Source: a virus
IMG/VR virus record: IMGVR_UViG_3300009149_000014
Coordinates: 1-64,000 of that record
Length of the DNA: 64,000 nt
Direction: 5' to 3' (one strand)
Shown: positions 4,834-54,571 of the stretch, piece by piece
Position numbering within the stretch: position 1 is the stretch's first letter
Layout: each line of letters opens with the position of its first letter
Position numbers and translations under genes: made by a program
The notes under the pieces: model-generated
Database searches by the model: none
What the model saw: the letters and a program-made list of their open reading frames with translations, nothing else
What the model was told of the DNA's origin: nothing

Positions 4834-5935
4834 GAGCAAAGTCCTTTTAACGGCTGATTTTCACTTTGGGCTTCACGGCAAGACCCAAGACATTCTGATG
4901 GCTGCAAAATCAATTAGAAAATACGCACAAGAGAAGGGCATCAAACACGTTTTTCTTCTTGGCGACCTATTTCATGATCGTGAATCGACAAATGTTGAAG
5001 TCGGACATGTCGTGTACGAATTTCTTGCTGCCACAAAAAGAGAATACGGTCAAGAATGGTATGTCTTTCCAGGAAATCATGACATGTACTACAAGTACAG
5101 CTGGAAAATCACATCGCTTCGGTCTTATTCAGAAGTGTGTCATGTCCTTGAAGACATCCACAGGGTTGATGTCTTTGATCGTCGCTTCTGGATGATCCCA
5201 TTTATCGCTGTGGACAAAGCTTACATGGATGTTGTTGATGAAATCGACAAAGATTGCAAACAAAGCGATGTACTACTTACCCACATCGGATGTATCGGAG
5301 CCTCGTATAATCTATGCTTTTTGTTTCAAGAGCAAAAAGCGATTAATTTCGATCACCGAGCTGCTGGTCAAGTTTTCACAGGTCACTTTCACTGTTATCA
5401 TAGAGCTGGTGTCAAGACTCATTACACAGGTAGTCCTATCCCTTTCTCGTTCGACGAGGGTGTTGTTCCTCATGGGTTTATCGAATATGATTGTGACACT
5501 GGTAAGCATGAGTTCGTTGATCTGAGACCAATTATGCGACGTCATAATCCTGGTCGTCTATTGCCACCTGATATGATTACCATGAGTATCGACGATATCC
5601 CAAAGCTAGAAAGCGTCGATATAATGGGTAATTGTTTCAGAATCATTAGTGATCAGTATTTGCCAGAAGAATTGACGACCCAATATCGGAAAGAATTGCT
5701 TCAACAAGGAGCGAAAGTTGTCCGGTTTCTTCGGTTGAAAGATTCCCTTGAACCTGAAATTAATAGGGGATCGACCGGTGCTTCTCGAATGCAGGTCCAA
5801 GATTTGTTCACTCGTTTCTTTGAGCGGGATAAGCACGCAGATAAATATAATAAGGTCCTGATGAATCAGCTCAATAATGAAATCGTCTATGAAGGCGATT
5901 CTTTGTACACTGTCGATAACGTAGGCATTGATTAA
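4832..5935 (+). CDS. Mre11/SbcD/gp47-like nuclease
   Basis: Phosphoesterase motifs ADFHFG, GDLFH, PGNHD, TH, GHFH. Confidence 0.9.
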   Translation: MSKVLLTADFHFGLHGKTQDILMAAKSIRKYAQEKGIKHVFLLGDLFHDRESTNVEVGHVVYEFLAATKREYGQEWYVFPGNHDMYYKYSWKITSLRSYSEVCHVLEDIHRVDVFDRRFWMIPFIAVDKAYMDVVDEIDKDCKQSDVLLTHIGCIGASYNLCFLFQEQKAINFDHRAAGQVFTGHFHCYHRAGVKTHYTGSPIPFSFDEGVVPHGFIEYDCDTGKHEFVDLRPIMRRHNPGRLLPPDMITMSIDDIPKLESVDIMGNCFRIISDQYLPEELTTQYRKELLQQGAKVVRFLRLKDSLEPEINRGSTGASRMQVQDLFTRFFERDKHADKYNKVLMNQLNNEIVYEGDSLYTVDNVGID

Positions 5936-7443
5936 TGGTCGCTGTCACCAAATTCCCCAAGAATCCAACGCAAGATCAGTTGTATGTTGACCTGAATGGG
6001 GTAGAGTGGCGGTTTGATATTATTCGATCTAGATGGGTGCAGCAAAGCCTGTTTGAGAACATTCCTGTCGTTTCGGCTAGTCAAGACGGTTTAATCACAC
6101 CCGAAATTTATGATAGGCTCGAACAGCTTAAAATCTCGGCTGAACAATTAGATCTTTCGACGTTTAAAATCTTTCCCGGTATTGATGCGTATTATTACTA
6201 TTTTTACAGTCCAGATGGGCTAATTGATATTCGCCATCGTGGTGATGGAATTATTTCGATTGATGTCAATGAACAAAAATTAGTCGCCTATCTCTACCGC
6301 TACCTCTGCATCGGCGATCGAGGTATTCAAGGGGATAAGGGGATAGTTGGTAATCCTGGCTTACCAGCACCGAATGAACCGACGTTCTATCCGGATCGTG
6401 CCGAAAATGTGATTAGTGGTGAAGTTTATGTTCCAATCCCGATTGGGACTTATTATGATCATCCGACGATCACACCGATTAGCCTTCGGTTTTATGGTTT
6501 ATATACTGTTCCGACTTCTTTCACGCTCGGAGACCAGTTGGCATATTGGATTAATGTGATTGGTAATCCATTGTCTCAGCCTGAAGAAAAGGCGGTCTTT
6601 TCGCGTTTTCGACAGCGTATTATCGATCAATCCCTTGGTTTGTCGACTGGTCCTGTTGTTGATTTGTCGAATACTGTCAACAATGTGTTGCAATTAAATC
6701 CTGGGGCCATTCTTGAGCTTGATATTAATCCAGTCGATGGTTCTTTTACAATTGTCAACAATGGTATTAATGCTAATGCTGCGAATATTCAGGTCGAATT
6801 TGATCGTAATCTCGGGTATTTAAAATTCTCTATCGCCGCAGCTTGGCCTGATGATGTAGTGTTCAAATGTCGTCAGCGTGGTCCAAAAGGTGATCGTGGT
6901 GATATTCCAAACAGTTTCATTTCGCAATTTGATTGTGCATTCCCCGATAATTCTAATGTCCGCCCAGATACAGCTTTGATCCATTTTCGTCTTGACTGTG
7001 AAAATGATACTTTTTATGTCGCTTTTGATCGGTTGAACAGTCAAGATGCTTACCAATTGGTTTCTACTGATGTCCAAGCAGCCACCACCGCGACTAGGCC
7101 CATAATTGAGGGGCGTTATGCCGCTGTTGAAAGGGTCGCCGGTCCGGTTAAAATGACGGCTTTGTTGATTAATCAATTCGGAGATATTGATATTGATGAA
7201 CCTGATTTGCAAGATTGGGAACCGCAACCGGGCTGTCATACTAAGCGTTCTTTTGCCAATCATGAATTCGATTGGATAAGTGGTACCGATATTGGCGAAT
7301 GTGCTGATGAGCTTAAATGGTACGGTCCAGAGGGCGTTCGGCCTGGTAAATATCCGTATGAATTGGTCCGTCCTTCCGAACCACCTGGGGACCAATGTTG
7401 TCAAGATGACTATTTCATATTCCCCGAAACCGGGGATTGCTAA
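5935..7443 (+). CDS. putative virion structural/fibre protein with short collagen-like segments
   Basis: N-terminal FPKNP...W..D...W motif typical of phage fibre proteins; G-X-Y runs GDRGIQGDKGIVGNPG and GPKGDRGD; Cys-rich C-terminus. Confidence 0.55.
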   Translation: MVAVTKFPKNPTQDQLYVDLNGVEWRFDIIRSRWVQQSLFENIPVVSASQDGLITPEIYDRLEQLKISAEQLDLSTFKIFPGIDAYYYYFYSPDGLIDIRHRGDGIISIDVNEQKLVAYLYRYLCIGDRGIQGDKGIVGNPGLPAPNEPTFYPDRAENVISGEVYVPIPIGTYYDHPTITPISLRFYGLYTVPTSFTLGDQLAYWINVIGNPLSQPEEKAVFSRFRQRIIDQSLGLSTGPVVDLSNTVNNVLQLNPGAILELDINPVDGSFTIVNNGINANAANIQVEFDRNLGYLKFSIAAAWPDDVVFKCRQRGPKGDRGDIPNSFISQFDCAFPDNSNVRPDTALIHFRLDCENDTFYVAFDRLNSQDAYQLVSTDVQAATTATRPIIEGRYAAVERVAGPVKMTALLINQFGDIDIDEPDLQDWEPQPGCHTKRSFANHEFDWISGTDIGECADELKWYGPEGVRPGKYPYELVRPSEPPGDQCCQDDYFIFPETGDC

Positions 7444-7478: not shown

Positions 7479-8603
7479 ATGAAGTATCAAGATCTGTATA
7501 GATTGAAGTTCTCGCCTACTTTCGATTTGTTGGAATTAGTCGATAAAATCCGAAAATCGCCTTCAGATTGGGTGATGCTTGCCGATATTACTTATAAGTG
7601 TATCGACAAGCCAGATTTGGATGATTCTATCAATTTCAAACAGGTATTTGTTCCCCAAATCTTGCCTTATAGTCACAAGATTAATAATCCATTCGGTCGT
7701 AAAATCCAACATGTTTCGTTACAAGCCAATTTGAAAATCCAAGCTGTAATGACAGGAATTGAAGTCCGACCCGACTTTATCCCTTTCGCTATGATTGCTC
7801 ATAAAGCTTTGTTATTACGTGTTCTCAGTCGGTGCAGCAGTTGTTCGGAAGTGTTTTTGGAATTGAGCTTATTGTTGGCTGATCCAACTTATCAAATTAG
7901 TGTTCATCCTGATTGGTTGGCCACTGTGCGTTTAAGAGATGCAGATCAAAAGCCTCGGGCTCGTTTGATAGCTAAATATTTTCCCAGTGGAAGTGATTAT
8001 CTTGCAAACACCGAACAAACTGTTGTTGAGCCCGCAAGACGTGCTTTGGTGCACAGTAATAATCTTTGTCGCGATGGCTTTGTCAGACTTTATAACATTC
8101 TTAATCAAAGAGATGTTCTTTTAACTCAAAGTTCGACGGCAGAATACGAACACTGTAGGTTCAACTACACGACCATTGCTATTGATTCCGATATCGATGC
8201 CGATTATTACTTTGCTCTTCCCGGAGCTTTGTTTTCTTCTTTTGATATGCGACGAACTTTTGCACAAGTCGTTTTACCTGATCATAACAGCCCGGCTCCT
8301 ATTTATACGCCCTATGCCGAGCCATTGGGGGTTTTTGCTGTTAAACAATTTTCTTCTTCTGTCAATTTTGCCCCGCCTTTTTCGACTAGTTCTAATAATT
8401 TGTTGACTGCTTTAGAAATAATAGTATCGTGTGCCCCGAAGTCCGTTTTGATTAATTCTGATTCTATATTAGGTGCTTTAGTCGCGTCTGGGGATACTGC
8501 TGAATCTATTAAACGGCAAACGTTCTTAACCAGGATTATTGAATATTCTGTGGAACGTGGCATTCAAATAAAGGTGTTGGGTGATTTGTGTCAGTTGAAT
8601 TAA
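7479..8603 (+). CDS. hypothetical protein
   Basis: 374 aa ORF with no recognised motif. Confidence 0.6.
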   Translation: MKYQDLYRLKFSPTFDLLELVDKIRKSPSDWVMLADITYKCIDKPDLDDSINFKQVFVPQILPYSHKINNPFGRKIQHVSLQANLKIQAVMTGIEVRPDFIPFAMIAHKALLLRVLSRCSSCSEVFLELSLLLADPTYQISVHPDWLATVRLRDADQKPRARLIAKYFPSGSDYLANTEQTVVEPARRALVHSNNLCRDGFVRLYNILNQRDVLLTQSSTAEYEHCRFNYTTIAIDSDIDADYYFALPGALFSSFDMRRTFAQVVLPDHNSPAPIYTPYAEPLGVFAVKQFSSSVNFAPPFSTSSNNLLTALEIIVSCAPKSVLINSDSILGALVASGDTAESIKRQTFLTRIIEYSVERGIQIKVLGDLCQLN

Positions 8604-8881
8604 CTCTTGTGATTGTTGGTTTGTTGATTATTATCTCTAATCAAGTCGTGATGGCTGTTTTGTTGTATAAAATCATCAAACAATCAGATCAGCATCGTCC
8701 AACTGGATATGTTTCTAAGCCAGTTGAATCTGGTGCAACTGAACAGATCGCTCCTCCTAAAGCTGTGTTCAAACCTTCACCTAAATCAGTTCCTTTGCCA
8801 GACCCGGCGTCGTTATTAAAAAATACTCCGTCTGCGTCGGGCTTCGGTTCAAGGACTAATTCTAGTGGCAAAGAATCCTAA
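8588..8881 (+). CDS. small single-pass membrane protein with Pro/Lys/Ser-rich tail
   Basis: Hydrophobic N-terminus LTLVIVGLLIIISNQVVMAVLLY followed by KIIK and a low-complexity tail. Confidence 0.6.
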   Translation: MSVELTLVIVGLLIIISNQVVMAVLLYKIIKQSDQHRPTGYVSKPVESGATEQIAPPKAVFKPSPKSVPLPDPASLLKNTPSASGFGSRTNSSGKES

Positions 8882-9086
8882 CGAGATTTTATCGGACACA
8901 GCTAAACGTCCGTTGCCGCTTATCCATCAAACTAGGACGGGTCTTCCACCGAAGCCGGTGTCCGTTCCTCGTGTGAAAAAATTCGTTAAGCGTAAGCCGT
9001 CTGGTATTGTTAAAGTAGTACATAACTCGGTTAAACCTCCAAGAGTTTACCGATTAGGCCAAATTTGTCGTTGTGAGAGAATTATT

Positions 9087-10157
9087 ATGAAAAATCTCGG
9101 ACTAGATCTGGGTACCCGCAATATAGTTCTTGCTTTTCAGGAAGAAGATGGTTCGACTGGATACTTGAGTGAAGTGAACGGCTATTGGCCTTTTGAACGA
9201 GTTACACCGTTCCTTAGAAATATGCTTGATGATCCAAACAAGATCAGATCTGACGGAACCAAACGTCCGGCTCGCTGGATTGAACTCGATGGTCAAGCTA
9301 TCATTCTTGGTAAAGATGCTGAAGAATTTGCATATGCCAAAAATGATTACCTTCGTCGTCCTATGGCTGAGGGTGGCGTTGCGGCTGATGAAGAAGCTAT
9401 GACTATTCTGTCAACCATCGTAACTGGTTTGTTAAAAACCGCTGAAGATGAAGTCGGCGTATTTGCCAAAGATCTCAAACTATGTTATTGCACCACGGCT
9501 CCTGCAATCAACAAAGACATCAATCTTGATTATCACACTAGAGTGGTAGAAATTATTCTGAATAATTATCCCACCAAGGCTAAGATCCAAAAAGATACAA
9601 TCAAAGAATCTCATGCTATCGTGCTTGACTCATCAGAGGATGGAACAGGAATCGGTATTAGTTGGGGTGCTGGCACTGTTACTGTCAGTTATGTCAAGTA
9701 TGGTCTTGAAATATTCAGTTTTTGCTGGGTCGGTTCTGGTGACTGGATCGATAATGAAACAGCCGTTCGTCATGGATTTAATCCTGATAATCGTAAAAAA
9801 TCGAAAGAAACTCCAACGACAGTTTCAAAACGCAAAATGTCCGTCGACCTGACCCCAGGTAAAGAACCCACAGATAGGTTGGGTATGGATATTGTGCTTC
9901 ATTATGAGATCCTGATTAACAATGTTATGGAAGGCATTGTTAATGGATTTGTAGAAAATGAAAATGAAGCCCGGATCGAAGAAGGCGTGAACATCTACAT
10001 GGCTGGTGGTACAGCGAGCCCAGCTGGATTTACTGATCGTGTTATTAAGTTAATGTCTGAACTCGAAGTTCCATTCGAGGTCAATAAAGTCATTCTGACT
10101 AAAGATCCTCTCTTAACAGTGGCCCGAGGCTGTTTAAAAGCTTCGACAATGTTTTAA
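9087..10157 (+). CDS. actin-superfamily ATPase (volactin/MreB-like)
   Basis: Phosphate-1 GLDLGT, RRPM..G, phosphate-2 GIGISWGAGT, GDWID, adenosine MAGGT, terminal VARGCL. ATG 9087 follows GAGAG; an in-frame GTG at 8865 would add 74 Pro/Lys-rich aa. Confidence 0.85.
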   Translation: MKNLGLDLGTRNIVLAFQEEDGSTGYLSEVNGYWPFERVTPFLRNMLDDPNKIRSDGTKRPARWIELDGQAIILGKDAEEFAYAKNDYLRRPMAEGGVAADEEAMTILSTIVTGLLKTAEDEVGVFAKDLKLCYCTTAPAINKDINLDYHTRVVEIILNNYPTKAKIQKDTIKESHAIVLDSSEDGTGIGISWGAGTVTVSYVKYGLEIFSFCWVGSGDWIDNETAVRHGFNPDNRKKSKETPTTVSKRKMSVDLTPGKEPTDRLGMDIVLHYEILINNVMEGIVNGFVENENEARIEEGVNIYMAGGTASPAGFTDRVIKLMSELEVPFEVNKVILTKDPLLTVARGCLKASTMF

Positions 10158-10804
10158 TGGCAAAATTCGAACTGTTGTGTTCAAAAGATCAAGTAGCCGT
10201 TATCAAGATCGGCAACTCTATTTATTATGTCGATCTTGATAACCATTTTGATGTTCTGGTCTATGATTCTGAGTTTAACAAACAAAATATTATAGTTCCA
10301 GAATACTGGCTTCCCGAGGTCACTCGTGGTGAAGCTACTCTCGCCGTGCTTAAAGCCAGCATGACTGCGTATGAGAATGGGTTTAATGCTGGATACTCTA
10401 TTAAATCAAAGCGTCATTTCAAGCACTTTGCTGAGAAATTGGCTCAATCGATGATGAATCCTGAACTTGCCAAACGCATTGTTCAGCTTTTTTGGGTCGA
10501 GCTTCGCCCATTTGATGTTATCAAGGACATGGTGGCTAAAATTGTTTCGAACGAACAAATTCGTTCGAAAACGGCTCGTGCTTCGCGTATGACCCTTGAT
10601 CGATATATTCCTCGTGCTGCATTTGAAGGTGACAAAGAATATCGTGACAAAATATTCACAATTATACAAGACATGGAACCTGTAACATTTGATCCTACTG
10701 ATGAACTCCTCAACGTTTTAGATCTTGAGGACACAGATGTGCCACATCTGATACAAAATATCGACAAAATAGTGGGATTACGAACCAATGCCAGAACCGA
10801 GTGA
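10157..10804 (+). CDS. hypothetical protein
   Basis: 215 aa ORF coupled by TAATG to the actin-like gene. Confidence 0.6.
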   Translation: MAKFELLCSKDQVAVIKIGNSIYYVDLDNHFDVLVYDSEFNKQNIIVPEYWLPEVTRGEATLAVLKASMTAYENGFNAGYSIKSKRHFKHFAEKLAQSMMNPELAKRIVQLFWVELRPFDVIKDMVAKIVSNEQIRSKTARASRMTLDRYIPRAAFEGDKEYRDKIFTIIQDMEPVTFDPTDELLNVLDLEDTDVPHLIQNIDKIVGLRTNARTE

Positions 10805-13388
10805 GTATATAGGACCCTCTGGTTTTGCTCATCTTCACAGTCATTCGATTTATAGTGCTCTTGACGGTGTAGCAACTATTGATGAGTATGCTGAGAAATG
10901 CGTAGAACGTGGCTGGTCTGGTATGGCTCTCACCGAACATGGTCATATGGGTTCGTTGCCCGATTTCTACTTCAAATTCAAGGAACATGGGCTCAAGGCG
11001 ATACCAGGGTGTTTCTTGCCTCTACAGCCTGTTTTGACAGATTCTGGCGTAGTGGATATCGAGGATCTTGTTGATGGCCATCGCTTATTGACTCACAAGA
11101 ATGGTTTCCAACCAGTATTGAATTTGCAATCTAGAGCCTTTAAAGGCGACATGGTTGTATTAAAATCTTGGGGTGTTGAGGACATAACTTGCACATCTGA
11201 ACATCCTTTTTTAGTTAGAGAAGTCAAGCGTAGAAAGATCAAAAAAGGTGTTTGGGAGGATGATATAACGGTAGGATGGTATAAGGCTGGTGAGCTATTT
11301 AGGGAGAAATACCACCGGACGTATGATACCAAAAAGAGTAAAAATAGAGACAACAAAAGGCGATATCGTTTTTATTTGTGTGTCCCTAGGCCAAATGGCT
11401 CTGGAATTGATAATGTTCCTGTCGATTCTAATTGTTTCCTCGAAAATCATGATTTGACTTTCGAGGGCGATATTATTAGATCTGTGAAGTATCACGGGAA
11501 ATATCGTAATGAATATTCTGTCAATTTGCCTCGGAAACTTGAGCTTGATGAGGAACTTCTATGGATAATGGGTCTATGGTTAGCAGAAGGAACTGAGAAA
11601 AATGGTTTACATTTTCATCTCAGTTCTGACGAGTTCCATTTTTGCGAGAGAATAACAGAATATTTTGCACAATTTGGTATTAAAACATCTCACGCATTTA
11701 GAAATGGCGATGGCGAAAAAACACCCAGAGAAGCTTTAGATGTTTCTGTTTACTCAGTCTATTTTGGTCGCTTATTTGTCAATTTGTTCGGAGAATATTT
11801 CGATCGAAAATCTATACCATCAGATTGGTTGCTTGGATTGTCAAGAGATCAATCAAAATGGTTATTAGATGGCCTCTTCGATGGGGATGCTAAAGTTTGT
11901 AAAGATCAGAGTTATTTGAAACTATGTAATAGAACTTTAGTTTGGCAGGCCAGAGTCTTATTGTCTGCGATTGGTCAATATTCCGCTGTTTCAGAAATCC
12001 CAAACAATAATTCTGATAATATTGGTTATTGTATTCGTCGAAGAGAATCCGGGCATTTTTATTATGATCTAGATGACGATTTTATCTATTTGCCTGTCTA
12101 TGATATCGACAAGTTGGAATACGACGGCCTTGTTTATAATGCTCAAGTAAAAGATGACAATTCCTATAATGTTGGAGTTGCTTGTCATAATTGTGAGATT
12201 TATTTCAACGACTTCGAGCCTCAGCGACAGAAGTTGGTCGAGCAGGGCATTAAAATGAAGAGTCAGGCATGGCGTGTCGAGAATTTTGAACTTGCGACTC
12301 GTATCAATCGTAATCGTCACCTTACTGTATTGTGTAAGAATGAGATCGGATTACATAATCTTCTTAAGTTGACCACTGAAGCATATGATGATGGTTTGTT
12401 CGGTGCTGGAAGCCGCAAAATGAACCGCATCTGGTTCGATAAATTGTGTAAATATCGCGAAGGTCTTATTATCTTAAGTGGATGCTTAAATGGTCCAGTC
12501 GCCCATGAATTGAGATATAAGCAGCTCGTAGACAAAGAAGGCAATATTATCGTTGAGACTACTCGAAAAGAACGATTTATTGCAGCGGCTAATTATGTAA
12601 AGAAATTCAAGGATGTCTTCGGCGAGGATTATTATATTGAGCTTCAAATGCCTGGGATCGAAGACGATCATGAGGTGTTTTGGGATTTAGTGGGTTTAGC
12701 TGATTTCTTTAAATTGAAGCTGGTGCTTGCGAACGACTCGCACTATATTCAACGTAAAGACTTTCAAATTCAAAAGATCATGATGGCAACGGCTCAGGGG
12801 ACTACTGTTGATTCCCCTGATTTGTTTCATGTGAATAGCGATGAACAGTTTTTTAAGACCAGGGCTGAACTTTGGGCTTATTTTAACAATAATCGTTATT
12901 GCGAAAAGGTTAGTGGTAGCCAATTCGAAGCAATGTGTGATACCACTCTTGAGATTGTTGATAAATGTGAGAAAGTTGAGCTTGATGGTAATCCTAAATT
13001 CCCTAGGATTACTGATGATGCGACTAAATTGACTGAGATCGTCTTTAAGGCTTTGCGAACCAAAGGCTTGGACAAAATTGATCGTAAATTCATTATTGAC
13101 GGTCGTGAGGTAACGTATACCACACAAGCAACTATCGAATTAACACGGTTTATCTCAAAAGGGTTCGCAAGTTATTTCTTGATCACTCAAGATTTAATTA
13201 TGTACGGGAAATCCAGGGGCTGGATTTTCGGCCCCCGAGGTAGTGCTGGTGGCAGCTTAGTTTGTTATTTGCTTGGATTGTCATCCATCGACCCATTGAA
13301 ATGGGATTTGTCTTTCGACCGATTCTTGTCTGAGGCTCGTGGTGGATATCGTCTCAATGCTTCTATGCCTAAACCGGTTTCAACATGA
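10788..13388 (+). CDS. dnaE: DNA polymerase III alpha, N-terminal part (PHP domain plus first palm segment), intein-containing
   Basis: HLHSHSIYSALDG, LTEHG, PG/CEIY, ILSGCLNG, NDSHY, GPRGSAGGSLVCYLLG, FDRFLSEAR. Ends just before the catalytic PDxDxD. Confidence 0.93.
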   Translation: MPEPSEYIGPSGFAHLHSHSIYSALDGVATIDEYAEKCVERGWSGMALTEHGHMGSLPDFYFKFKEHGLKAIPGCFLPLQPVLTDSGVVDIEDLVDGHRLLTHKNGFQPVLNLQSRAFKGDMVVLKSWGVEDITCTSEHPFLVREVKRRKIKKGVWEDDITVGWYKAGELFREKYHRTYDTKKSKNRDNKRRYRFYLCVPRPNGSGIDNVPVDSNCFLENHDLTFEGDIIRSVKYHGKYRNEYSVNLPRKLELDEELLWIMGLWLAEGTEKNGLHFHLSSDEFHFCERITEYFAQFGIKTSHAFRNGDGEKTPREALDVSVYSVYFGRLFVNLFGEYFDRKSIPSDWLLGLSRDQSKWLLDGLFDGDAKVCKDQSYLKLCNRTLVWQARVLLSAIGQYSAVSEIPNNNSDNIGYCIRRRESGHFYYDLDDDFIYLPVYDIDKLEYDGLVYNAQVKDDNSYNVGVACHNCEIYFNDFEPQRQKLVEQGIKMKSQAWRVENFELATRINRNRHLTVLCKNEIGLHNLLKLTTEAYDDGLFGAGSRKMNRIWFDKLCKYREGLIILSGCLNGPVAHELRYKQLVDKEGNIIVETTRKERFIAAANYVKKFKDVFGEDYYIELQMPGIEDDHEVFWDLVGLADFFKLKLVLANDSHYIQRKDFQIQKIMMATAQGTTVDSPDLFHVNSDEQFFKTRAELWAYFNNNRYCEKVSGSQFEAMCDTTLEIVDKCEKVELDGNPKFPRITDDATKLTEIVFKALRTKGLDKIDRKFIIDGREVTYTTQATIELTRFISKGFASYFLITQDLIMYGKSRGWIFGPRGSAGGSLVCYLLGLSSIDPLKWDLSFDRFLSEARGGYRLNASMPKPVST
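11010..12191 (+). mobile_element. intein (394 aa) with LAGLIDADG endonuclease in the DnaE PHP domain
   Basis: Begins CFLPLQPV after IPG; block B TSEHPF; motifs GLWLAEG and DGLFDGDA; ends VACHN before +1 Cys (CEIYF). Confidence 0.92.
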
Positions 13389-14371
13389 TTAGAATACAAT
13401 ACAAAGACGCAATTATCAATGGCCAATTATACTGTACTCTCCAAGTGCAGCGAGAAATGAATGAAGGCGAATACGCCATGTTATTCATGTCCCGATGGTT
13501 TGGCTCCGCCGAAGTTCTCCCACCAGGTGGCCGTGGCGAACTGCTCGCTCTAGCCGCTACCACCGGTTCTTATCGCCATGAGCTTTTATTGATTAGTCCA
13601 CCATTGGATCGCAATGCTGATAAAGTCCTTACAGATTGGCGAGCTAGATTTCAGCGTATTGAATATTGCGTCTGTGACGTTTCAGTCGAACAGATTTTGG
13701 CGGCTGAATGTCAAATACTTGCTGACTCTGACGAACGAGCTATTGTGGATGAAATCATGATCAAAAACTTGCCTCCCTCCGTCTTCTATGAATCTCATGA
13801 TGGCAAGCATAAAGCTAATCTCAGCGGTTCCCTAAACGATATTGAACCCAATGATTTTGTTTATGTTTTGGTTGAACCACCTGCCAAAATCATCGGATTC
13901 CGCCGTGCTTTTTCTAAAAAGCACCTTAGAGAGCTTGTGTCTCAAGCTAATGATCATGGACTCCTTATTTATTATAGTTCGTTCAAAATCGAAGGTCGTC
14001 ATACTGTCGCCGAAGGGCCTTGGGTATTATTACCAGCTTCCTTGCGAAATCTTGGTAAATCATCCGGTCCATCTGTCGATGTTGGTGATGTTGTGAGTAC
14101 ATCGGTCGATGTAGTAAATGATGACGAGACCAGCGACGATGGCGAGGTTAGCGATGAAAACAATGATCTCGAAACAACCAGCTCTGATGCCCCTGTTGTC
14201 TCGGTCGAGAATGTTATAACGTCTGATGATTCGGACAGTATTGTTCAAAATAAGGACGGTAAATTAATCTGTCCTTATTGTCAGAAAGAATTCAAAAAGG
14301 CGTTTGGTTTGTCAAACCACGTCAACTCAATTCACCCGGATCGCGTTGATGACTACAAGTCTCGCAAATAA
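13385..14371 (+). CDS. hypothetical protein with acidic linker and C-terminal C2H2 zinc finger
   Basis: CPYCQKEFKKAFGLSNHVNSIH fits C-x2-C-x3-F-x5-L-x2-H-x4-H. Confidence 0.7.
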   Translation: MIRIQYKDAIINGQLYCTLQVQREMNEGEYAMLFMSRWFGSAEVLPPGGRGELLALAATTGSYRHELLLISPPLDRNADKVLTDWRARFQRIEYCVCDVSVEQILAAECQILADSDERAIVDEIMIKNLPPSVFYESHDGKHKANLSGSLNDIEPNDFVYVLVEPPAKIIGFRRAFSKKHLRELVSQANDHGLLIYYSSFKIEGRHTVAEGPWVLLPASLRNLGKSSGPSVDVGDVVSTSVDVVNDDETSDDGEVSDENNDLETTSSDAPVVSVENVITSDDSDSIVQNKDGKLICPYCQKEFKKAFGLSNHVNSIHPDRVDDYKSRK

Positions 14372-17300
14372 GATAGAAACATGGGCAGAATTCGAAGAAT
14401 TGGTCAGGACCTCTTCGTCTCATTTGCCTCAAGACTATCAAAAACGCATTGAATTCGAATTATACGAGCTTAACAAACAGGGTCTTAATGGTTTGTGGCT
14501 CGAATATATTGCTACTGATGCAAAATTCGATTCGAATCCCAACAATTTGCTGATCCCGTGGGTTCTACAAATGTTGACTGATATGACAGATCCGATGACC
14601 CTTCGGACGTCACCATGTCTGGTCAGTACAAGCTATGATGAAGTTGCCGCTTATGTTGAAGAACATGGCGAACCTCCCCATGATTTCCTTAAAGATTCCG
14701 ATGTTCCGGATATCGACATTGATTGTCTCCCAGCAGCTCGTGATCCAATCAAGGATTATGCTATTCGTCGCTATGGTGATGGCGATTCATTAAGTGATTT
14801 GCAAGTTTGTAGTGTAGGCACATGGCAGACATACAAATTCAAAATGGCTATTCAAGACGCGGCCACCGCTTTAGGGTACATGCATCGGAAAGAGGCTGAA
14901 AAGCTTACGTCCAATCTACCTGAAGATCTCGATAACCTAAAACCGGGTGGTTTCGCTACATGCAAAGGCATTATTACCAATGATGCTGGTGAACACAAAG
15001 AATGCGGACATAAGCATTACAAATATCAATGTCCCAAATGTGGTAGTGAAATCACTGATGCTCCTACTCTTGAGCGATTACTCAAAGAAAATGAAGAACT
15101 GAACAAGTTCGCGATTCAATATCCATCTGTGATTGCATATGCCGCCAAAATGGTCGGTCGAATCCGCAACATGGGTATGCACGCTGGTGCTCTGATTATT
15201 GCCAATTCTAAATTGCTCGGTAATATCCCATTAGGCAAGAACAAAGCAGACGGCCCATGGGTGTCCATGTGGTCCGAAGGCAGTAATCAACAATTGTCGA
15301 AATGCGGATATATCAAGTGGGACATTCTTGGACTCAAGACTCTTGAGTATATTTACGATTGTTGCCGCATGATTAGGGTTAATCGCGGTATTTCTTTTGG
15401 TATTCCACAAGAAATCGAAGGTTATGGTGGTTGTTATGAATTGTCAGGTCTAGATGAAGTAGATCCCGAAGCTGATTATTGTGGCAAGTTTTATGGTCCG
15501 GATGGTGTTGAACATGAGATCAGATATAATGATTCTCATACTTACAAGCTTATTAATACCCAACGTACTGACACGATCTTTCAATTCGATACGTCTCTGG
15601 CTAAATCGATTTTGGCCGATGCATCCGAAGGTGACGGTGTTAGTGATCCACACCAATTGACATTGCTCAATGCTCTTGGCCATCCTGGTCCAATGCAATC
15701 TATTCCAAAAATTTTGGCGAATCGCGATGATCCATCTCAGTCATGGAAAGAAGAATTAAAATCTCGTTCTCCGATTATGTACGATATTCTTAAGACGACT
15801 TACGGACACGTATGTTTCCACGAGACAACTAAGATTACCAAAAGCAATGGTCAAGAATGCTACATTACTGATATTAAAGCGGGAGACACAGTATTTTCTG
15901 TAGACGAAGACAGAAATATTAATATTAATGAGGTTGAATGTTGTGGTCCGACATATTTCGGCGATGGTCTTTGTATCACTTTAAGCAACGGTTATAAATT
16001 CATTGTTACCGACAATCATGATGTTCCCACATATGATGGTGTATTGGACGCTTGTGATTTGCGAGTTGGGGACTTGCTCGGCGTACCAAAATCACTATCG
16101 GTTGATGTTGATAAAAAATTTGAAAATTGCGTTGATTGGCTTGGTGACCCAGAGGATGCTGCTTATTTAATAGGATTCTTGGTTGGTGATGGTTCATTGT
16201 CTGGGTCTGGTGTTTCAATATGCTGTGGCAACGACCCAAATATCACTAATATCTTAGAAGATTTTATTTCAAAGTCGTTTAAGCCTATTAATATTCATAA
16301 ATATTGGCATTGTAGATCATGGTATCTACAGTTGTCTACAGGTGTCAAGAAAGAGAAAAATTTTGACATCAGAACCTTTGTTGATAACATGGATTGGTGG
16401 CAAGAAGCTTATTCATCTTACTCTGGTCAAGATATTTCTGAATTTATCGGGAAAAGTGCGTGGTGGACCTATAAGAGGATTAGAGAGTTAGGTATTGATG
16501 TTACCGGTTCTTCAAAAAATCCTTGGAAGTCAAAATTCATTGACACCATTGACTATCTTGGTCTACGATGTTCGGTTTATCACAAGAGAATTCCACATCA
16601 AATACTATCCGCTTCAAGACAGATTAGACAATATTTTTTAGCTGGTTTAATAGAATCGGATGGCCATCTTTCTGAGAACGATGAATCTTGCTATGTATCG
16701 TCTATTAATGATGATTTGTTGGATGATATTAGATGTCTTTGTACCTCTTTGGGTATTGGAACACATTTTTCCGAACATCATAGAATCTATATATGGGACA
16801 CCAAAGAATTAGAATCTGCGATTAATGATAAATTATTATTTAAATCATTTAATAAATCTTTAACCAGCGGCTCACACTCATATTACGTTTCTAAATATGA
16901 ATTCCATCGATTGTTTAAAGATTCTGGTTTGTCGCAACGAAAGTTTGCTTGTGTTTATGGTATTGCTAGAAGCCATTTCAGAAACAATTCTTCGTTAATT
17001 TCGAAGAATGTCGCTGATAAAATTGGAGTATCAACAGGAGATTTGAATTATGTTAAAGTGACTCGTATTGATAGAGTCACTGGTCAGTATTTTTGGAATT
17101 TATCTGTAAAGAATGATCATAGTGTAATCGCAAATGGTGTATATCTTAAACAGTGTTATCAAGAGCAATTAACTGCTCTATGGCAACGGCTGGCTGGCTT
17201 TTCGGCCACAGAAGCTCAAGCGGCTCGTAAGGATATTGCTAAAAAGAAGATTCACAAACTTCCAGCAATTAAGGAAAAATGGGTGCGTGGTGCCACAAAA

Positions 17301-18461
17301 ACTCTTGGTGCAGATTTTGCAAATGATTATTGGTCAGTTTTAGAGACGTTTGGACGTTACGCTTTCAATCGTAGTCACGGTGTTGCATACGCCGCTATTA
17401 TTGCATATCGTTGCACATGGTTCAAGGCCCACTTTTTCCCCGAGTGGATCGCATCTGTTCTTAGTACCTGTGATCCGAAGAAAGCTCCACGTTATATTTC
17501 GATGGCTCGGGCTGAAGGATGGAGACCTACTGATATTACAAATATTGGTCGACCACCAGCGGAAGGTTATGAAAAATTCGATATTATCCCAGTAGATATC
17601 AACAACCTGAGCCCGAACTTTAGTGTGATTGGGAATGTTGTTTCTGTTGGTATGCTGTCGATTAAGGGTATCGGAGAATCAGATCGTGCCGTTGCAGAAA
17701 TGGACGCACATTTCGAATCGCTCGATGATTTTGTTGCGAAAACTAATGCTGGTAAGACTTTGGTCGAACGATTGATTCGGCTTGGTGCGTTTGAGAAAAT
17801 ACCAGGACATTCTAATAGTCGTGCATTGTGGTATTACTATTCATACACGCATAAGAAATTGAGCACGGCTGAACGTCGTGAATTATACCCAAAGCTATTG
17901 CAAGCTAGTGGTTGGACACCTGAAAAGATCGAGGACGAACGTGATCGGCAAGTTGATGCTTATCGCGAATTATATCCTAAGAAAAAAGAGCAGAATTATC
18001 CTAAAAAGGTGACTGAATGGATGCCTGCGGATAAGCATGATTTGTCCACATTCTGCGAAATGTTCGAAGATTATAAAATCGCCGAGATTATTACATTCGA
18101 AGACGAGTATCTTGGTTATCATTTGTCCAATCCATTGTTGATGTACGATACGAGAGCAAATAGAGATATTGACGGTTGTATTGAAGATTGTATGGTCAAT
18201 AAACCAGCATTTCTCGAATGTATTATCGTCGAGGTCAATCGTGGTGCGACACAAAAAGGTGACCCATATTGTCGTTTAAATGTTGCTGATGGAAGACAAA
18301 CCACAACAGTCTTCATTTGGAGCAACAATCTTGATCGCATTAATCCTGCTCTATTAAGAAAGGGTGTCGCGGTTATGATTCCAGTCGGTTATCAACCTAA
18401 ACGTAAATCTTTCACTATGCTCAAAGACAACGTAATCATCCCGTTGAATCGAAAAGACTAA
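14349..18461 (+). CDS. dnaE: DNA polymerase III alpha, C-terminal part (catalytic palm, thumb, fingers, HhH, OB), intein-containing
   Basis: PDIDID, GMHAGA, KWDILGLKTL, IFQF, YQEQ, YAFNRSH, SIKGIG, OB-like end. ATG 14349 preferred over TTG 14304. Confidence 0.92.
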   Translation: MTTSLANKIETWAEFEELVRTSSSHLPQDYQKRIEFELYELNKQGLNGLWLEYIATDAKFDSNPNNLLIPWVLQMLTDMTDPMTLRTSPCLVSTSYDEVAAYVEEHGEPPHDFLKDSDVPDIDIDCLPAARDPIKDYAIRRYGDGDSLSDLQVCSVGTWQTYKFKMAIQDAATALGYMHRKEAEKLTSNLPEDLDNLKPGGFATCKGIITNDAGEHKECGHKHYKYQCPKCGSEITDAPTLERLLKENEELNKFAIQYPSVIAYAAKMVGRIRNMGMHAGALIIANSKLLGNIPLGKNKADGPWVSMWSEGSNQQLSKCGYIKWDILGLKTLEYIYDCCRMIRVNRGISFGIPQEIEGYGGCYELSGLDEVDPEADYCGKFYGPDGVEHEIRYNDSHTYKLINTQRTDTIFQFDTSLAKSILADASEGDGVSDPHQLTLLNALGHPGPMQSIPKILANRDDPSQSWKEELKSRSPIMYDILKTTYGHVCFHETTKITKSNGQECYITDIKAGDTVFSVDEDRNININEVECCGPTYFGDGLCITLSNGYKFIVTDNHDVPTYDGVLDACDLRVGDLLGVPKSLSVDVDKKFENCVDWLGDPEDAAYLIGFLVGDGSLSGSGVSICCGNDPNITNILEDFISKSFKPINIHKYWHCRSWYLQLSTGVKKEKNFDIRTFVDNMDWWQEAYSSYSGQDISEFIGKSAWWTYKRIRELGIDVTGSSKNPWKSKFIDTIDYLGLRCSVYHKRIPHQILSASRQIRQYFLAGLIESDGHLSENDESCYVSSINDDLLDDIRCLCTSLGIGTHFSEHHRIYIWDTKELESAINDKLLFKSFNKSLTSGSHSYYVSKYEFHRLFKDSGLSQRKFACVYGIARSHFRNNSSLISKNVADKIGVSTGDLNYVKVTRIDRVTGQYFWNLSVKNDHSVIANGVYLKQCYQEQLTALWQRLAGFSATEAQAARKDIAKKKIHKLPAIKEKWVRGATKTLGADFANDYWSVLETFGRYAFNRSHGVAYAAIIAYRCTWFKAHFFPEWIASVLSTCDPKKAPRYISMARAEGWRPTDITNIGRPPAEGYEKFDIIPVDINNLSPNFSVIGNVVSVGMLSIKGIGESDRAVAEMDAHFESLDDFVAKTNAGKTLVERLIRLGAFEKIPGHSNSRALWYYYSYTHKKLSTAERRELYPKLLQASGWTPEKIEDERDRQVDAYRELYPKKKEQNYPKKVTEWMPADKHDLSTFCEMFEDYKIAEIITFEDEYLGYHLSNPLLMYDTRANRDIDGCIEDCMVNKPAFLECIIVEVNRGATQKGDPYCRLNVADGRQTTTVFIWSNNLDRINPALLRKGVAVMIPVGYQPKRKSFTMLKDNVIIPLNRKD
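15813..17153 (+). mobile_element. intein (447 aa) with LAGLIDADG endonuclease and atypical Lys-Gln C-terminus
   Basis: Begins CFHETTKI after TYGHV; block B TDNH; GFLVGDG and AGLIESDG; ends IANGVYLKQ before CYQEQ. Confidence 0.9.
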
Positions 18462-51638: not shown

Positions 51639-51715
51639 TATTCGCCTTCAATAGAATACGCTCCGTCCGGCAAAATTACCTTTGAACAATCTAATAATTG
51701 CGGAGCTTTGATACA

Positions 51716-54571
51716 ATGCCAACTTACTTGAGCCCCGGCGTTTACTCAAGAGTGGTCGAAATTGCCACGTTGCCAAATGCGACTGGTCCACTTCGTCCTG
51801 GCTTTATTGGTACTGCCAATAAAGGTCCTGTGAATACGCCTGTATTGATCACCAATGCTCAGCAATTCATCGACGTTTTCGGCGAGCCCTTCCCAGATAG
51901 CTATCTCGGATACGCTGTTTTGGCTTTCCTTGAAGAAGGGAATCAAGCATACGTCCTTCGAGTTGCTGTTGAATGCGAAGAGGGACAACCACAAGAATTG
52001 CGTGACGTCTGTATCGACACCAGTGGTTCCAGAATCGAAGGTTGGGGTCGTGTCCCAGTCTTTTCTGGAATCGATGTCGGTCGTATTCCATTCCGAGCAA
52101 TCGGTGACGGAAACAATGCCAATCCAGGGCCTGTTTCATTTCACCCAGCCAGCATTTTCAATAGCAACTATGTTGATGCTAGCCTGAGTAGCACTAATGG
52201 TGCTACCGCTGCCACTCTTGGTTTTCTGGGCAATTACACAGGCGATATCGACGATTCATTCACTTTGGTAATTCGAAGTGAGCCAGATCTTTCTTCCGGA
52301 GCCGGAATCGGCGGTGCAGAATTTCAAATCATTCGTAATAGCGATGGTGAAGTTCTGGTCGATGATGTGCTCGTTGATCAAAGTGCTAATAACATCAGTG
52401 ATTGGATTCCAGTACCGGATGCTGGTTTCAGTGTTCGGGTCGAACTGACTTCGGGCGAGCTTGATATCGGTGACACTTTCACTTGGAATGTTGAGCCTGA
52501 CAACCGATCTTTTGCGATCGCAGTTGAAGGTGATGCGACTCCAAACGTGTATCAAATGCCAACCGCAACTTTCACAAGTGTCAATGATTTTGTGGTCGCT
52601 GCTAATGCTTTGTTGGTTGGTGAAGACTACATTTTCGCCCCTAACATCGTTGATGGTGTTACAATCGCGGAAGTACAATCGATCACTGAAGGTGACAGAA
52701 TTCAGTTGATGGCTACCAATGCGTTTGCTCTTGAATTGAATACCCGGCAATATGCTTGGGATATTCCACGAGCTTACTTGCTTGGTCTCGATCCAGGTCC
52801 TTACACTTTCAGTTCACAAAACAATCGTGTGATCTTGAACGTGATCGGCGAGAACGACACACAACAAATCTCTGTGTCAGTCGCTACCGGAACGAATATC
52901 ACCACTACTTCTATCGTTGGTACAATCGACGGTGCTGGTTCAATCAATGGTGAAAATTTCTACGAAGCGATCGAGTTGACCGTACCAGGTGGCACGACTC
53001 ACTTGGCAATCATTACTCATCCAGATCATCAAAACGATACACTTGAATTGTTGGCTAACTTCAGCAATATCAAAGTTCTTCGATTCGCTGACGAAGTGGA
53101 TATCATCAATCCTTACCGCCGAAGCTACCGAGGTTTCTTCGATAGCCGAACTTCTCTTCCAGAGCCTGGACAAAACGATCCGTCCGTACCACTTTCTTGT
53201 GAAATGAATCCACTCAGTGCTGCATGCATCGCTGATTCGAATTACTTCCAGAATATTGTTGGTTGGTTCGTTGCTCCAAGTGCTGGAACTTGGGCTGATA
53301 ACATCACGATTCAACTCTCGCTCTTCACTGAAGGTGTGGGTGATATCGCTGGTCGCTTCAAACTGATCGTCCTTGGTTCACAAGGTGAAATCCTGGAACG
53401 AGTTGAAGACTTTACCTTCGATAGACGAGACACCAACTACATCGCCAATTTGATCAATCCTGGCACAAGTGGTGGCGGTCTTCGTGGCAATCTTTTCGTC
53501 CATTGGGAAGATCGTCCAGGTTTCTTGGGCAATGATCCAAACTTGAGCACCTACGAACTACGTCAACCTTCACAATTTGCTGCTCGTCAGTACACTGGTG
53601 GTGCCAATGGTATCCCAACTGACCCAAGCTTTTCGAACTTGCTTGATGCTGCTGTTATCGGTAGCCCACAGCTTGCGACTGGTTTGTATGCTTTCGAAAA
53701 TCCAGAAGGACTTGAAATCGATGTGCTCGCTACTCCTGGTTTCAGCTCTGGAGCTGTTATTGGTACTGCGATTCAGATCGTTTCCAGCCGTGGTGATGCA
53801 GTTTACCTTGTTGATCCTCCGTTCGGTCTCCGACCACAACAAACGGTTGATTGGCACAATGGTATGCTTTTGAGCGATTTGCAACAAGCGATCAATACGA
53901 GTTATGCCGGTCTTTACACTGGTTGGCTGTTGGTCTTCGATCAGTTCAGTGGTCAGAACGTTTGGATTCCACCATCCGGTCACATTTCCGCAGTGTTCAG
54001 CCGATCCGCTCGTGATGCTGAACCTTGGTCAGCTCCTGCTGGTTTGCGTCGTGGTCGTTTGTTGAGCCCAATTGCGGTTGAATACTCGCCGACTCAAGGT
54101 GAACGCGATCTGCTTTACGGTTCTGGCAACAGTGTCAACCCGATCGTGAATTTCACTCAAGAAGGCTTGACAGTTTGGGGTAATCGCACCCTGCAACGTG
54201 GTGAAGCTCCTTTGAGCCGAATGGACGTTCGATTGCTTGTTAACCGAATTCGTCGTGGTCTTGCTCAGTTGCTTCGCAACTTTGTCTTCGAGCCAAATGA
54301 TCGGATTTTGTGGTCACAAGTTCGAGCTTCGATCAATCCGTTCTTGGCTGATATTCAGTCACGTCGTGGTTTGGTTGAGTACGTTCTGATTGTCGATGAG
54401 AATAACAACACGGCTGAACGAATCGACCGTGGTGAGCTTTGGGTATCTGTGATCTTGGTTCCGCAACGTGCTGCTGAGATCGTTGTACTCAACATTGGTG
54501 TTACTCGCCAAAGTGTGAGTTTGACTTCGGAAGAGGTCTTGTCAGCTGTTGGCGTTGTGAATGGTGGTTAA
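51716..54571 (+). CDS. contractile tail sheath protein (gp18-like)
   Basis: MPTYLSPGVY, GTANKGPVNTP, PPSG, WSAPAG.RRG, VNPI, WGNRTL, VRLL, FEPND. Confidence 0.95.
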   Translation: MPTYLSPGVYSRVVEIATLPNATGPLRPGFIGTANKGPVNTPVLITNAQQFIDVFGEPFPDSYLGYAVLAFLEEGNQAYVLRVAVECEEGQPQELRDVCIDTSGSRIEGWGRVPVFSGIDVGRIPFRAIGDGNNANPGPVSFHPASIFNSNYVDASLSSTNGATAATLGFLGNYTGDIDDSFTLVIRSEPDLSSGAGIGGAEFQIIRNSDGEVLVDDVLVDQSANNISDWIPVPDAGFSVRVELTSGELDIGDTFTWNVEPDNRSFAIAVEGDATPNVYQMPTATFTSVNDFVVAANALLVGEDYIFAPNIVDGVTIAEVQSITEGDRIQLMATNAFALELNTRQYAWDIPRAYLLGLDPGPYTFSSQNNRVILNVIGENDTQQISVSVATGTNITTTSIVGTIDGAGSINGENFYEAIELTVPGGTTHLAIITHPDHQNDTLELLANFSNIKVLRFADEVDIINPYRRSYRGFFDSRTSLPEPGQNDPSVPLSCEMNPLSAACIADSNYFQNIVGWFVAPSAGTWADNITIQLSLFTEGVGDIAGRFKLIVLGSQGEILERVEDFTFDRRDTNYIANLINPGTSGGGLRGNLFVHWEDRPGFLGNDPNLSTYELRQPSQFAARQYTGGANGIPTDPSFSNLLDAAVIGSPQLATGLYAFENPEGLEIDVLATPGFSSGAVIGTAIQIVSSRGDAVYLVDPPFGLRPQQTVDWHNGMLLSDLQQAINTSYAGLYTGWLLVFDQFSGQNVWIPPSGHISAVFSRSARDAEPWSAPAGLRRGRLLSPIAVEYSPTQGERDLLYGSGNSVNPIVNFTQEGLTVWGNRTLQRGEAPLSRMDVRLLVNRIRRGLAQLLRNFVFEPNDRILWSQVRASINPFLADIQSRRGLVEYVLIVDENNNTAERIDRGELWVSVILVPQRAAEIVVLNIGVTRQSVSLTSEEVLSAVGVVNGG

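Follow-up and report, generated by a model that had tools for sequence, protein, structure and literature searches.

The window analyzed here, the first 64 kb (64,000 nucleotides) of the 116-kb IMG/VR virus record IMGVR_UViG_3300009149_000014, carries a gene for an actin of the volactin family directly behind a gene for a small membrane-spanning protein, here called the adaptor, and it is this pair that concerns us. The record was recovered from a subsurface metagenome and is rated 32% complete by CheckV, which suggests a genome of about 360 kb. PHROGs matches in the window (a tail sheath at 51698-54571, a tape measure, SbcC, SbcD, a UvsX-like recombinase, DnaB, an NAD-dependent ligase, and a primase, besides two helicases) identify the DNA as that of a tailed phage, and the carrier is an uncultured jumbo phage of myovirus-like character. 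The pair lies within a run of five consecutive genes:

7479-8603, plus strand: p374, an open reading frame (ORF) of 374 amino acids (aa) whose stop overlaps the adaptor start by 16 nucleotides
8588-8881, plus strand: membrane adaptor gene, an ORF of 97 aa with positional homologues in related loci
8865-10157, plus strand: volactin-family actin gene, 430 aa, with a GTG start and a 17-nucleotide overlap with the last codons of the adaptor
10157-10804, plus strand: p215, 215 aa, a subclade-specific accessory gene, TAATG-coupled to the actin and overlapping dnaE by 17 nucleotides
10788-13388, plus strand: first part of dnaE, intein-bearing, for the replicase alpha subunit, with PHP, DNA_pol3_alpha, Hint_2, and LAGLIDADG_3 matches

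The overlaps are thus 16, 17, 1, and 17 nucleotides, and because there is one at every junction from p374 to dnaE, the five genes appear to form one tightly coupled operon. The reading frames of the adaptor, the actin, and p215, and the dnaE start at 10788, sit exactly where an earlier reading of this DNA (the original prediction) had put them. For comparison, 17 related viral loci were assembled, with actins 52-79% identical to that of the window; one of them begins inside the actin gene.

The 430-aa protein belongs to the volactin family. Its sole Pfam match is Volactin (PF25216), at 133.9 bits against a cut-off of 35 (E 1.2e-38), and covers residues 78-426 and profile positions 3-320 of 321; this E value and the 669 homologues described below together argue that the assignment is not due to chance. 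The original prediction had favored volactin over MreB and ParM, and this choice is borne out by the Pfam score and by the silence of the other actin-type models, since none of the MreB (PF06723), actin, ParM/StbA, FtsA, PilM, or Hsp70 models in Pfam matches at E<=0.1. The NCBIfam model for MamK (NF040964) aligns only partially, over residues 312-426, and reaches 19.7 bits where the cut-off is 400. With Escherichia coli MreB, BLASTP finds just a local C-terminal match of 35 aa (E 0.002), and phmmer against the sequences of the PDB returned only a chance match to a pectinesterase (E 0.1), with no BeeR at E<=1. By BLASTP, P0146, an acidic protein of 342 aa with a PF25216 score of 232 bits, aligns with the phage protein over the full length at 30% identity (E 5e-37). 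The phage actin, at 134 bits, scores lower on the family profile than other members, which reach 230-270 bits.

The family is well populated. A word-indexed search returned the 669 actin homologues, and the best 120 of these are 56-100% identical, all carry PF25216, and lie on contigs of up to 439 kb; when 1.84 billion cluster representatives were searched with a profile, 696 clusters (at 50% identity) passed E<=1e-3, and 394 passed E<=1e-10. In the ESM Atlas, the nearest clusters bear the name “Volactin domain-containing protein” and have 78-97% viral members, and genome-contig profile scans with alignment A1 and with P0146 found no cellular relatives. A quick maximum-likelihood tree, built without any named volactin sequence, recovers the clade of the window as monophyletic (Shimodaira-Hasegawa-like approximate likelihood ratio test [SH-aLRT] 100), with internal branches of 0.02-0.3 against a family median of 0.71 for end branches; the clade and the homologue from the 595-kb phage LR756511 fall within one supported group, and E. 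coli MreB stands as a very long, distant outgroup branch. Three complete relatives, of 364-408 kb, have one volactin gene each. No tubulin (PF00091) match was found in the record of the window or in relatives that are 74-100% complete. Several family members elsewhere have unusual architectures. In P0128, P0131, and P0141 (~700 aa), the volactin gene is interrupted by a LAGLIDADG homing-endonuclease intein, at profile positions ~150-200 to 250; the actin of the window has no intein. P0265 (1160 aa) joins the volactin domain to Wzz, GNVR, and a ParA/MinD-like P-loop and resembles a polysaccharide co-polymerase with its tyrosine kinase, and P0183 (699 aa) is acidic, with a weak ParB-HTH match in its N-terminal region.

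The nucleotide-binding motifs named in the original prediction are all present and are invariant across an alignment of 54 actin homologues, to which the conservation columns below refer:

9099-9122, plus strand: phosphate-1 motif G-L-D-L-G-T-R-N, residues 79-86; G79, D81, G83, and T84 invariant in the 54 sequences
9354-9377, plus strand: R-R-P-M-A-E-G-G, residues 164-171; R165, M167, E169, and G170 invariant
9648-9677, plus strand: phosphate-2 motif G-I-G-I-S-W-G-A-G-T, residues 262-271; G262, G264, and S266-T271 invariant
9738-9821, plus strand: G-D-W-I-D (residues 292-296) and a clade-specific insertion with E-T-P-T-T (residues 315-319); invariant columns
10002-10031, plus strand: adenosine motif A-G-G-T-A-S-P-A-G-F, residues 380-389; A380, G381, G382, P386, G388, and F389 invariant

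The RRPMAEGG segment aligns in P0146 too, and the S-x-G-A/S-G pattern at phosphate-2 is common to P0146 and the huge-phage homologues; the insertion bearing ETPTT is shorter or different in P0146 and LR756511. Mean column identity over the 54 homologues is 56%, with more than 100 invariant residues. Across the related loci, the actin is as conserved as DnaE, while the flanking genes are at 22-30% identity.

An AlphaFold (AF2) model built from the same 54-homologue alignment has a predicted local distance difference test (pLDDT) score of 82.2, mostly >85 in the core, and a predicted template modeling (pTM) score of 0.80, and what it predicts is an actin/ASKHA fold with four subdomains. Foldseek placed MamK (5ljv, E 5e-13), MreB, BeeR, actin, and crenactin at the top of its ranking. 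In a second comparison, with an aligner independent of Foldseek that reports Z scores, the best structural match is BeeR (8r2n; Z 26.5, 308 residues aligned, root-mean-square deviation 3.3 Å, identity 17%), with MreB (4cze) at Z 24.4 and crenactin (4bql) at Z 23.2; 291-316 residues align to these three filament formers, all of which rank above Hsp70, FtsA, PilM, ParM, and the sugar kinases. Clustering with non-polymerizing ASKHA enzymes, the outcome that the original prediction had set against itself, was not seen; both fold searches are headed by proteins that form filaments.

Directly upstream of the actin, in 16 of the 16 related loci that have upstream DNA, is a small ORF with an N-terminal hydrophobic helix. 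The single-pass membrane protein with a Pro/Lys tail that had been reported ahead of the actin is therefore not only present in the window but also a conserved companion. In the window, it consists of a short N-terminus, one transmembrane (TM) helix, a disordered linker rich in Pro, Lys, and Ser, and a conserved C-terminal tail:

8600-8668, plus strand: predicted TM helix, residues ~5-27; a hydrophobic stretch with Lys-rich residues behind it
8789-8854, plus strand: tail motif VPLPDPASLLKNTPSASGFGSR, residues 68-89; candidate actin-docking peptide, from adaptor alignment A2

In the related loci, the adaptor ORF ranges from 88 to 163 aa, it ends in a stop codon that overlaps a GTG or ATG of the actin reading frame, and its hydropathy maximum over 19 residues is 1.6-3.3. 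By the positive-inside rule, the basic residues behind the helix would place the tail in the cytoplasm. Despite an overall identity to the adaptor of the window of just 17-24%, the homologues align on the tail motif, with the consensus ...P-P-E-x-x-A-P-S/N-L-x-K/R-P-P-x-P-x-G-G-F-G-S/T-R-V; in alignment A2, there is no variation at A74, P81, F86, and G87, and the conservation of G85 is 90% or higher. The pairwise ratio of nonsynonymous to synonymous substitution rates (dN/dS) is 0.16-0.5 in the closer pairs, which marks the ORF as a genuine gene on which purifying selection acts. Of 15 adaptors compared with Pfam, none matched a family. A profile search with the adaptor alignment found 32 proteins, mostly of one subgroup, a figure that comes from an insensitive word index and is no measure of co-occurrence. 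A WH2-type motif in the tail was considered and dropped, as the likeness of its LKK-like residues to LKK(T/V) comes down to three residues amid prolines. A separate observation concerns phage LR756511, where a 76-aa ORF without a TM helix lies upstream of the volactin gene (L019, 4768-4998); its end (...KFGKKA; IPEFKSGEKVKFGKKA) is faintly like the adaptor tail, and from this resemblance in sequence it may be a soluble version of the adaptor.

Between the adaptor and the actin fold lies a stretch in which both genes meet and in which a further start may be hidden:

8865-9041, plus strand: disordered N-terminal extension of the actin, residues 1-59; pLDDT <50 for residues 1-55
9042-9086, plus strand: pre-core motif RVYRLGQICRCERII, conserved, with the family pattern V-Y/F-x-L-G-D-x-x-x-G/I-R-R-x-x
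9075-9089, plus strand: Shine-Dalgarno-like purine run and candidate internal start; GAGAGA in the window, AGGAGA in most relatives

The extension is about 30 to 190 aa long among the relatives, and in every locus the actin frame continues without interruption from the stop codon of the adaptor as far as the core, for 30-190 codons. Between the window and L002, the extension has a dN/dS of 0.21 when read in frame, whereas the shifted frames give 0.96 and 0.73; the frame being open in all loci and the in-frame ratio being low, the 74 residues ahead of the fold are evidently translated. In the AF2 model, the pre-core motif forms a short strand (residues 60-63) that leads into the actin fold, with moderate confidence only. 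A frameshift fusion of adaptor and actin was considered and rejected: in every locus, the actin frame offers a start codon (GTG or ATG) at the adaptor stop or shortly ahead of it, consistent with ordinary translational coupling of the two genes.

The purine run stands 6 nucleotides ahead of the core methionine, Met75 (ATG at 9087), in the window and up to 8 nucleotides ahead of it elsewhere. The codons here are unusual. In 18 sequences, the six codons that precede the core Met include 35 Arg codons, of which 34 are AGA or AGG; among the Arg codons of the actin cores, the share of these two is 20% (58/286). The Arg-Arg pair ahead of the core Met is almost always AGG-AGA, at the same position in L003-L018. 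Met75 is at least 90% conserved, and many database gene calls begin at the core Met, giving proteins of 356-366 aa. A conserved AGGAGA that looks like an internal ribosome-binding site suggests that there is probably a second actin isoform, of 356 aa and without the extension.

The surroundings of the pair are conserved to different degrees. In 8 of the 18 loci (the window and its 17 relatives), no more than 350 nucleotides separate the actin from dnaE downstream of it; the distance is 0.6-2.1 kb in L002, L017, and the window itself, and 4-5 kb in three further loci, making 14 of 18 with dnaE within 5 kb and 4 of 18 without it in the 6 kb downstream. The placement of the actin directly before dnaE, as first described, thus stands for this phage lineage and fails in LR756511 and LR745208, huge phages that also carry a volactin gene but are distant from this lineage, and since neither has dnaE near that gene, the link to replication is a matter of lineage. 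The TAATG-coupled gene of unknown function has fared in a similarly mixed way. The junction is as described, with one base common to the actin stop and the p215 ATG (ttTAATGg, 10155-10159), but p215 does not belong to the conserved unit: it has only 10 homologues, at 56-66% identity, all in the subclade of the window and on contigs that carry the closest actins. Its AF2 model is of moderate quality (pLDDT 73.7, pTM 0.46), and no fold match reaches Z 8. On the other side of the pair, p374 has no Pfam, PHROG, or NCBIfam match and a counterpart (56% identity) only in L002 and L017, the closest relatives of the window; in L003-L016, the same position upstream of the adaptor is held by a GT2-like protein of ~470-500 aa with a glycosyltransferase-like N-terminus, unrelated to p374, so the gene ahead of the cassette has been swapped between subclades.

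Other features of the region can be stated briefly. Upstream of p374, p502 (502 aa, 5935-7443) contains short collagen-like Gly-X-Y runs (GDRGIQGDKGIVGNPGLP, GPKGDRGD), and has no family match; most related loci carry a homologue of it, at 22-66% identity, 2-5 kb ahead of the actin. In PHROGs, none of the five proteins named so far (actin, adaptor, p215, p374, and p502) matches a family. The dnaE gene (10788-18461) is in two ORFs parted by a 328-aa gene (13385-14371) with a C2H2 zinc-finger-like C-terminus; both ORFs carry large insertions of the Hint/LAGLIDADG type, and residues ~75-469 and 507-951 of the query have no counterpart in L010, L011, and L015. Promoter-like sites are at chance level (41 observed, 40.7 expected). 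Terminator-like sites are slightly above it (19 against 11.2) and do not define the operon, since they are mostly weak short stems inside coding sequence. A look-up of RNA runs listed none that contains the region.

A strongly conserved volactin encoded directly behind a membrane-spanning partner suggests that, inside the host, the phage probably assembles actin filaments that are tethered to the membrane. The reading we prefer, and to which we give a probability of about 0.68, is that of a phage actin which polymerizes and is held at the host membrane by the C-terminal peptide of a one-helix adaptor. The first gene of the pair would give a bitopic membrane protein with its N-terminus outside, one TM helix, a flexible cytoplasmic linker, and the tail peptide; the second, translationally coupled to it, would give a volactin-family actin that polymerizes on ATP into filaments. 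The adaptor tail would dock on these filaments, most likely at one of their ends or in the groove that other actin adaptors occupy, and would thereby anchor them to the inner membrane of the host. The role of the disordered N-terminal extension may be to keep filaments apart or to recruit a partner, and the conserved internal ribosome-binding site would probably yield the isoform that lacks it.

What such a system might be for is a more tentative matter. The likeliest use in this lineage would be to organize and position sites of phage DNA replication and assembly at the membrane, a suggestion that draws on the conserved position before dnaE in the replication module and on the precedent of AlpC/AlpA; it is one possibility among several, and we would put it at clearly less than even odds. 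The fullest version of the proposal, a large lineage of jumbo phages with its own two-isoform, adaptor-captured, membrane-tethered actin that organizes DNA replication as an actin counterpart of the PhuZ spindle, is on the doubtful side.

Several considerations weigh against a tethered, polymerizing actin. Polymerization cannot be read from sequence, and PilM, FtsA, and Hsp70 are also in the fold list, at Z 19-22. Other actin-fold ATPases typically have an Asp at phosphate-2, where this protein has the invariant Ser266. The locus counts given above are not independent, since all 18 loci are relatives of each other, and LR756511 and LR745208 have a volactin gene with no TM protein upstream of it and no dnaE nearby. 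The first of these points leads to the rival that we take most seriously, though we consider it unlikely: a non-polymerizing membrane scaffold in the manner of PilM/PilN or FtsA, which would clamp the cytoplasmic peptide of its partner and serve, under the control of ATP, as a chaperone or as a platform for assembly, with DNA entry, the replisome, and virion assembly as possible examples. An actin-fold protein paired with a single-pass protein through a short conserved peptide is the logic of PilM/PilN, and the fold list includes PilM-PilN (2ych, Z 19.6), PilM with a PilN peptide (5eou, Z 17.6), FtsA (7q6d, Z 21.8), and Hsp70 (5e84, Z 22.6). These are nonetheless outranked by BeeR (26.5), MreB (24.4), and crenactin (23.2), and filament formers head the Foldseek ranking too. 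No PilM, FtsA, or Hsp70 Pfam model is found at E 0.1, a degree of conservation equal to that of the replicase agrees with a polymer that has many interfaces, and the characterized volactin polymerizes in vivo (PMC10869688).

The target could instead be the host cytoskeleton, with the phage actin co-assembling with host MreB or displacing it, and the TM partner acting in the manner of RodZ, so that cell shape or wall is remodeled and, for example, an enlarged cell or blocked division leads to a larger burst. The fold is indeed MreB-like (Z 24.4), MreB works with the bitopic RodZ and 2wus appears in the Foldseek list, and volactin itself is a cell-shape factor (PMC10869688). Similarity to MreB in sequence is, however, limited to the 35-residue match at E 0.002, which makes co-polymerization unlikely; the partner has no RodZ-like domain or Pfam family; and the gene sits among replication genes rather than lysis or host-interaction genes. 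We regard host takeover as improbable. Less probable still is a DNA mover of the ParM/AlpC type, whose filaments would push or pull phage genomes through a DNA-binding adaptor, whether to partition a plasmid-like prophage or to move DNA during replication. Its attraction is that AlpC and AlpA are needed for efficient phage DNA replication (PMC4446434), that structures of the ParM type score Z 18-20 in the fold list, and that the actin gene is near dnaE; but the conserved partner here is a membrane protein and not a DNA-binding one, p215 is confined to one subclade and has no DNA-binding fold in its moderate-quality model, and there is no ParM/StbA Pfam match. A membrane-tethered actin polymer thus remains our preferred reading of the pair.

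Phage cytoskeletal polymers and actin-adaptor pairs are already known, and these proteins already bear the Pfam label through automatic annotation. The volactin family in phages, together with a membrane adaptor, is not described in any paper we found; a literature search turned up none on a phage volactin-type actin or its membrane adaptor. Phage cell biology is now centered on tubulin (PhuZ, TubZ) and the phage nucleus, and the only studied phage actin that we found is AlpC, from a prophage and with a DNA-binding adaptor. An actin family known only from one archaeal study proves to be widespread in large tailed phages. If the protein polymerizes, it would offer a simple two-protein system for tethering actin filaments to a membrane, a second and independent route by which large phages organize the infected cell, and possibly a handle on the role of archaeal volactin and its CdpA-like neighbor. 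The possible dual-start actin gene is a detail that can be tested directly.

Among known systems, the tubulin spindles of the nucleus-forming jumbo phages (PhuZ/TubZ), where PhuZ positions replicating phage DNA (PMC8314001), offer a parallel in setting: in both cases phages of >200 kb encode a cytoskeletal polymer, a putative one here, and the difference is one of superfamily, actin instead of tubulin. AlpC of the Corynebacterium glutamicum prophage CGP3, whose adaptor is AlpA, is the product of an early gene needed for efficient phage DNA replication (PMC4446434), and in function it is the nearest precedent for an actin that a phage encodes next to replication genes. As here, a phage-encoded actin-like protein has an adjacent adaptor gene, with which alpC is co-transcribed; AlpA, however, is a DNA-binding adaptor that ties phage DNA to the filaments, whereas the partner of the phage volactin would be a membrane anchor, and no DNA-binding adaptor was found here (AlpC was compared by description). 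PilM-PilN and MreB-RodZ likewise pair an actin-fold protein with a single-pass membrane protein, a cytoplasmic segment of which is bound in those two cases. Unlike them, the phage pair has no sequence-family match, its candidate docking peptide is at the C-terminus of the membrane protein, and filament formers are its best structural matches.

BeeR of Opitutus terrae (8r2n), the best structural match of the phage actin, likewise carries a disordered N-terminal domain in front of its actin fold, and in BeeR this domain prevents the bundling of filaments (PMC11929497). BeeR differs in being a cellular protein of the Verrucomicrobiota with no reported membrane partner, and the three-stranded tubes are BeeR’s. 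The nearest comparison is with the volactin of Haloferax volcanii (VolA), the only characterized member of the family, which forms dynamic filaments in vivo whose tips touch the membrane and is a cell-shape factor (PMC10869688). The two belong to the same Pfam family and have the same motifs, including S-x-G-A-G at phosphate-2 and GDWID, and in both a membrane protein is encoded beside the actin: volactin (HVO_2015) adjoins HVO_2016, a CdpA-like protein with four TM helices, and CdpA pull-downs contain volactin (PMC12126565). The phage partner has one TM helix instead of four, a comparison that for HVO_2016 relies on its published description. Compared with other volactins, the phage subclade is divergent and slowly evolving, with an N-terminal extension of 30-190 aa and the ETPTT insertion, and, unlike the haloarchaeal protein, it is borne by a tailed jumbo phage with a replisome of bacterial type (DnaE, DnaB, and NAD-dependent ligase).

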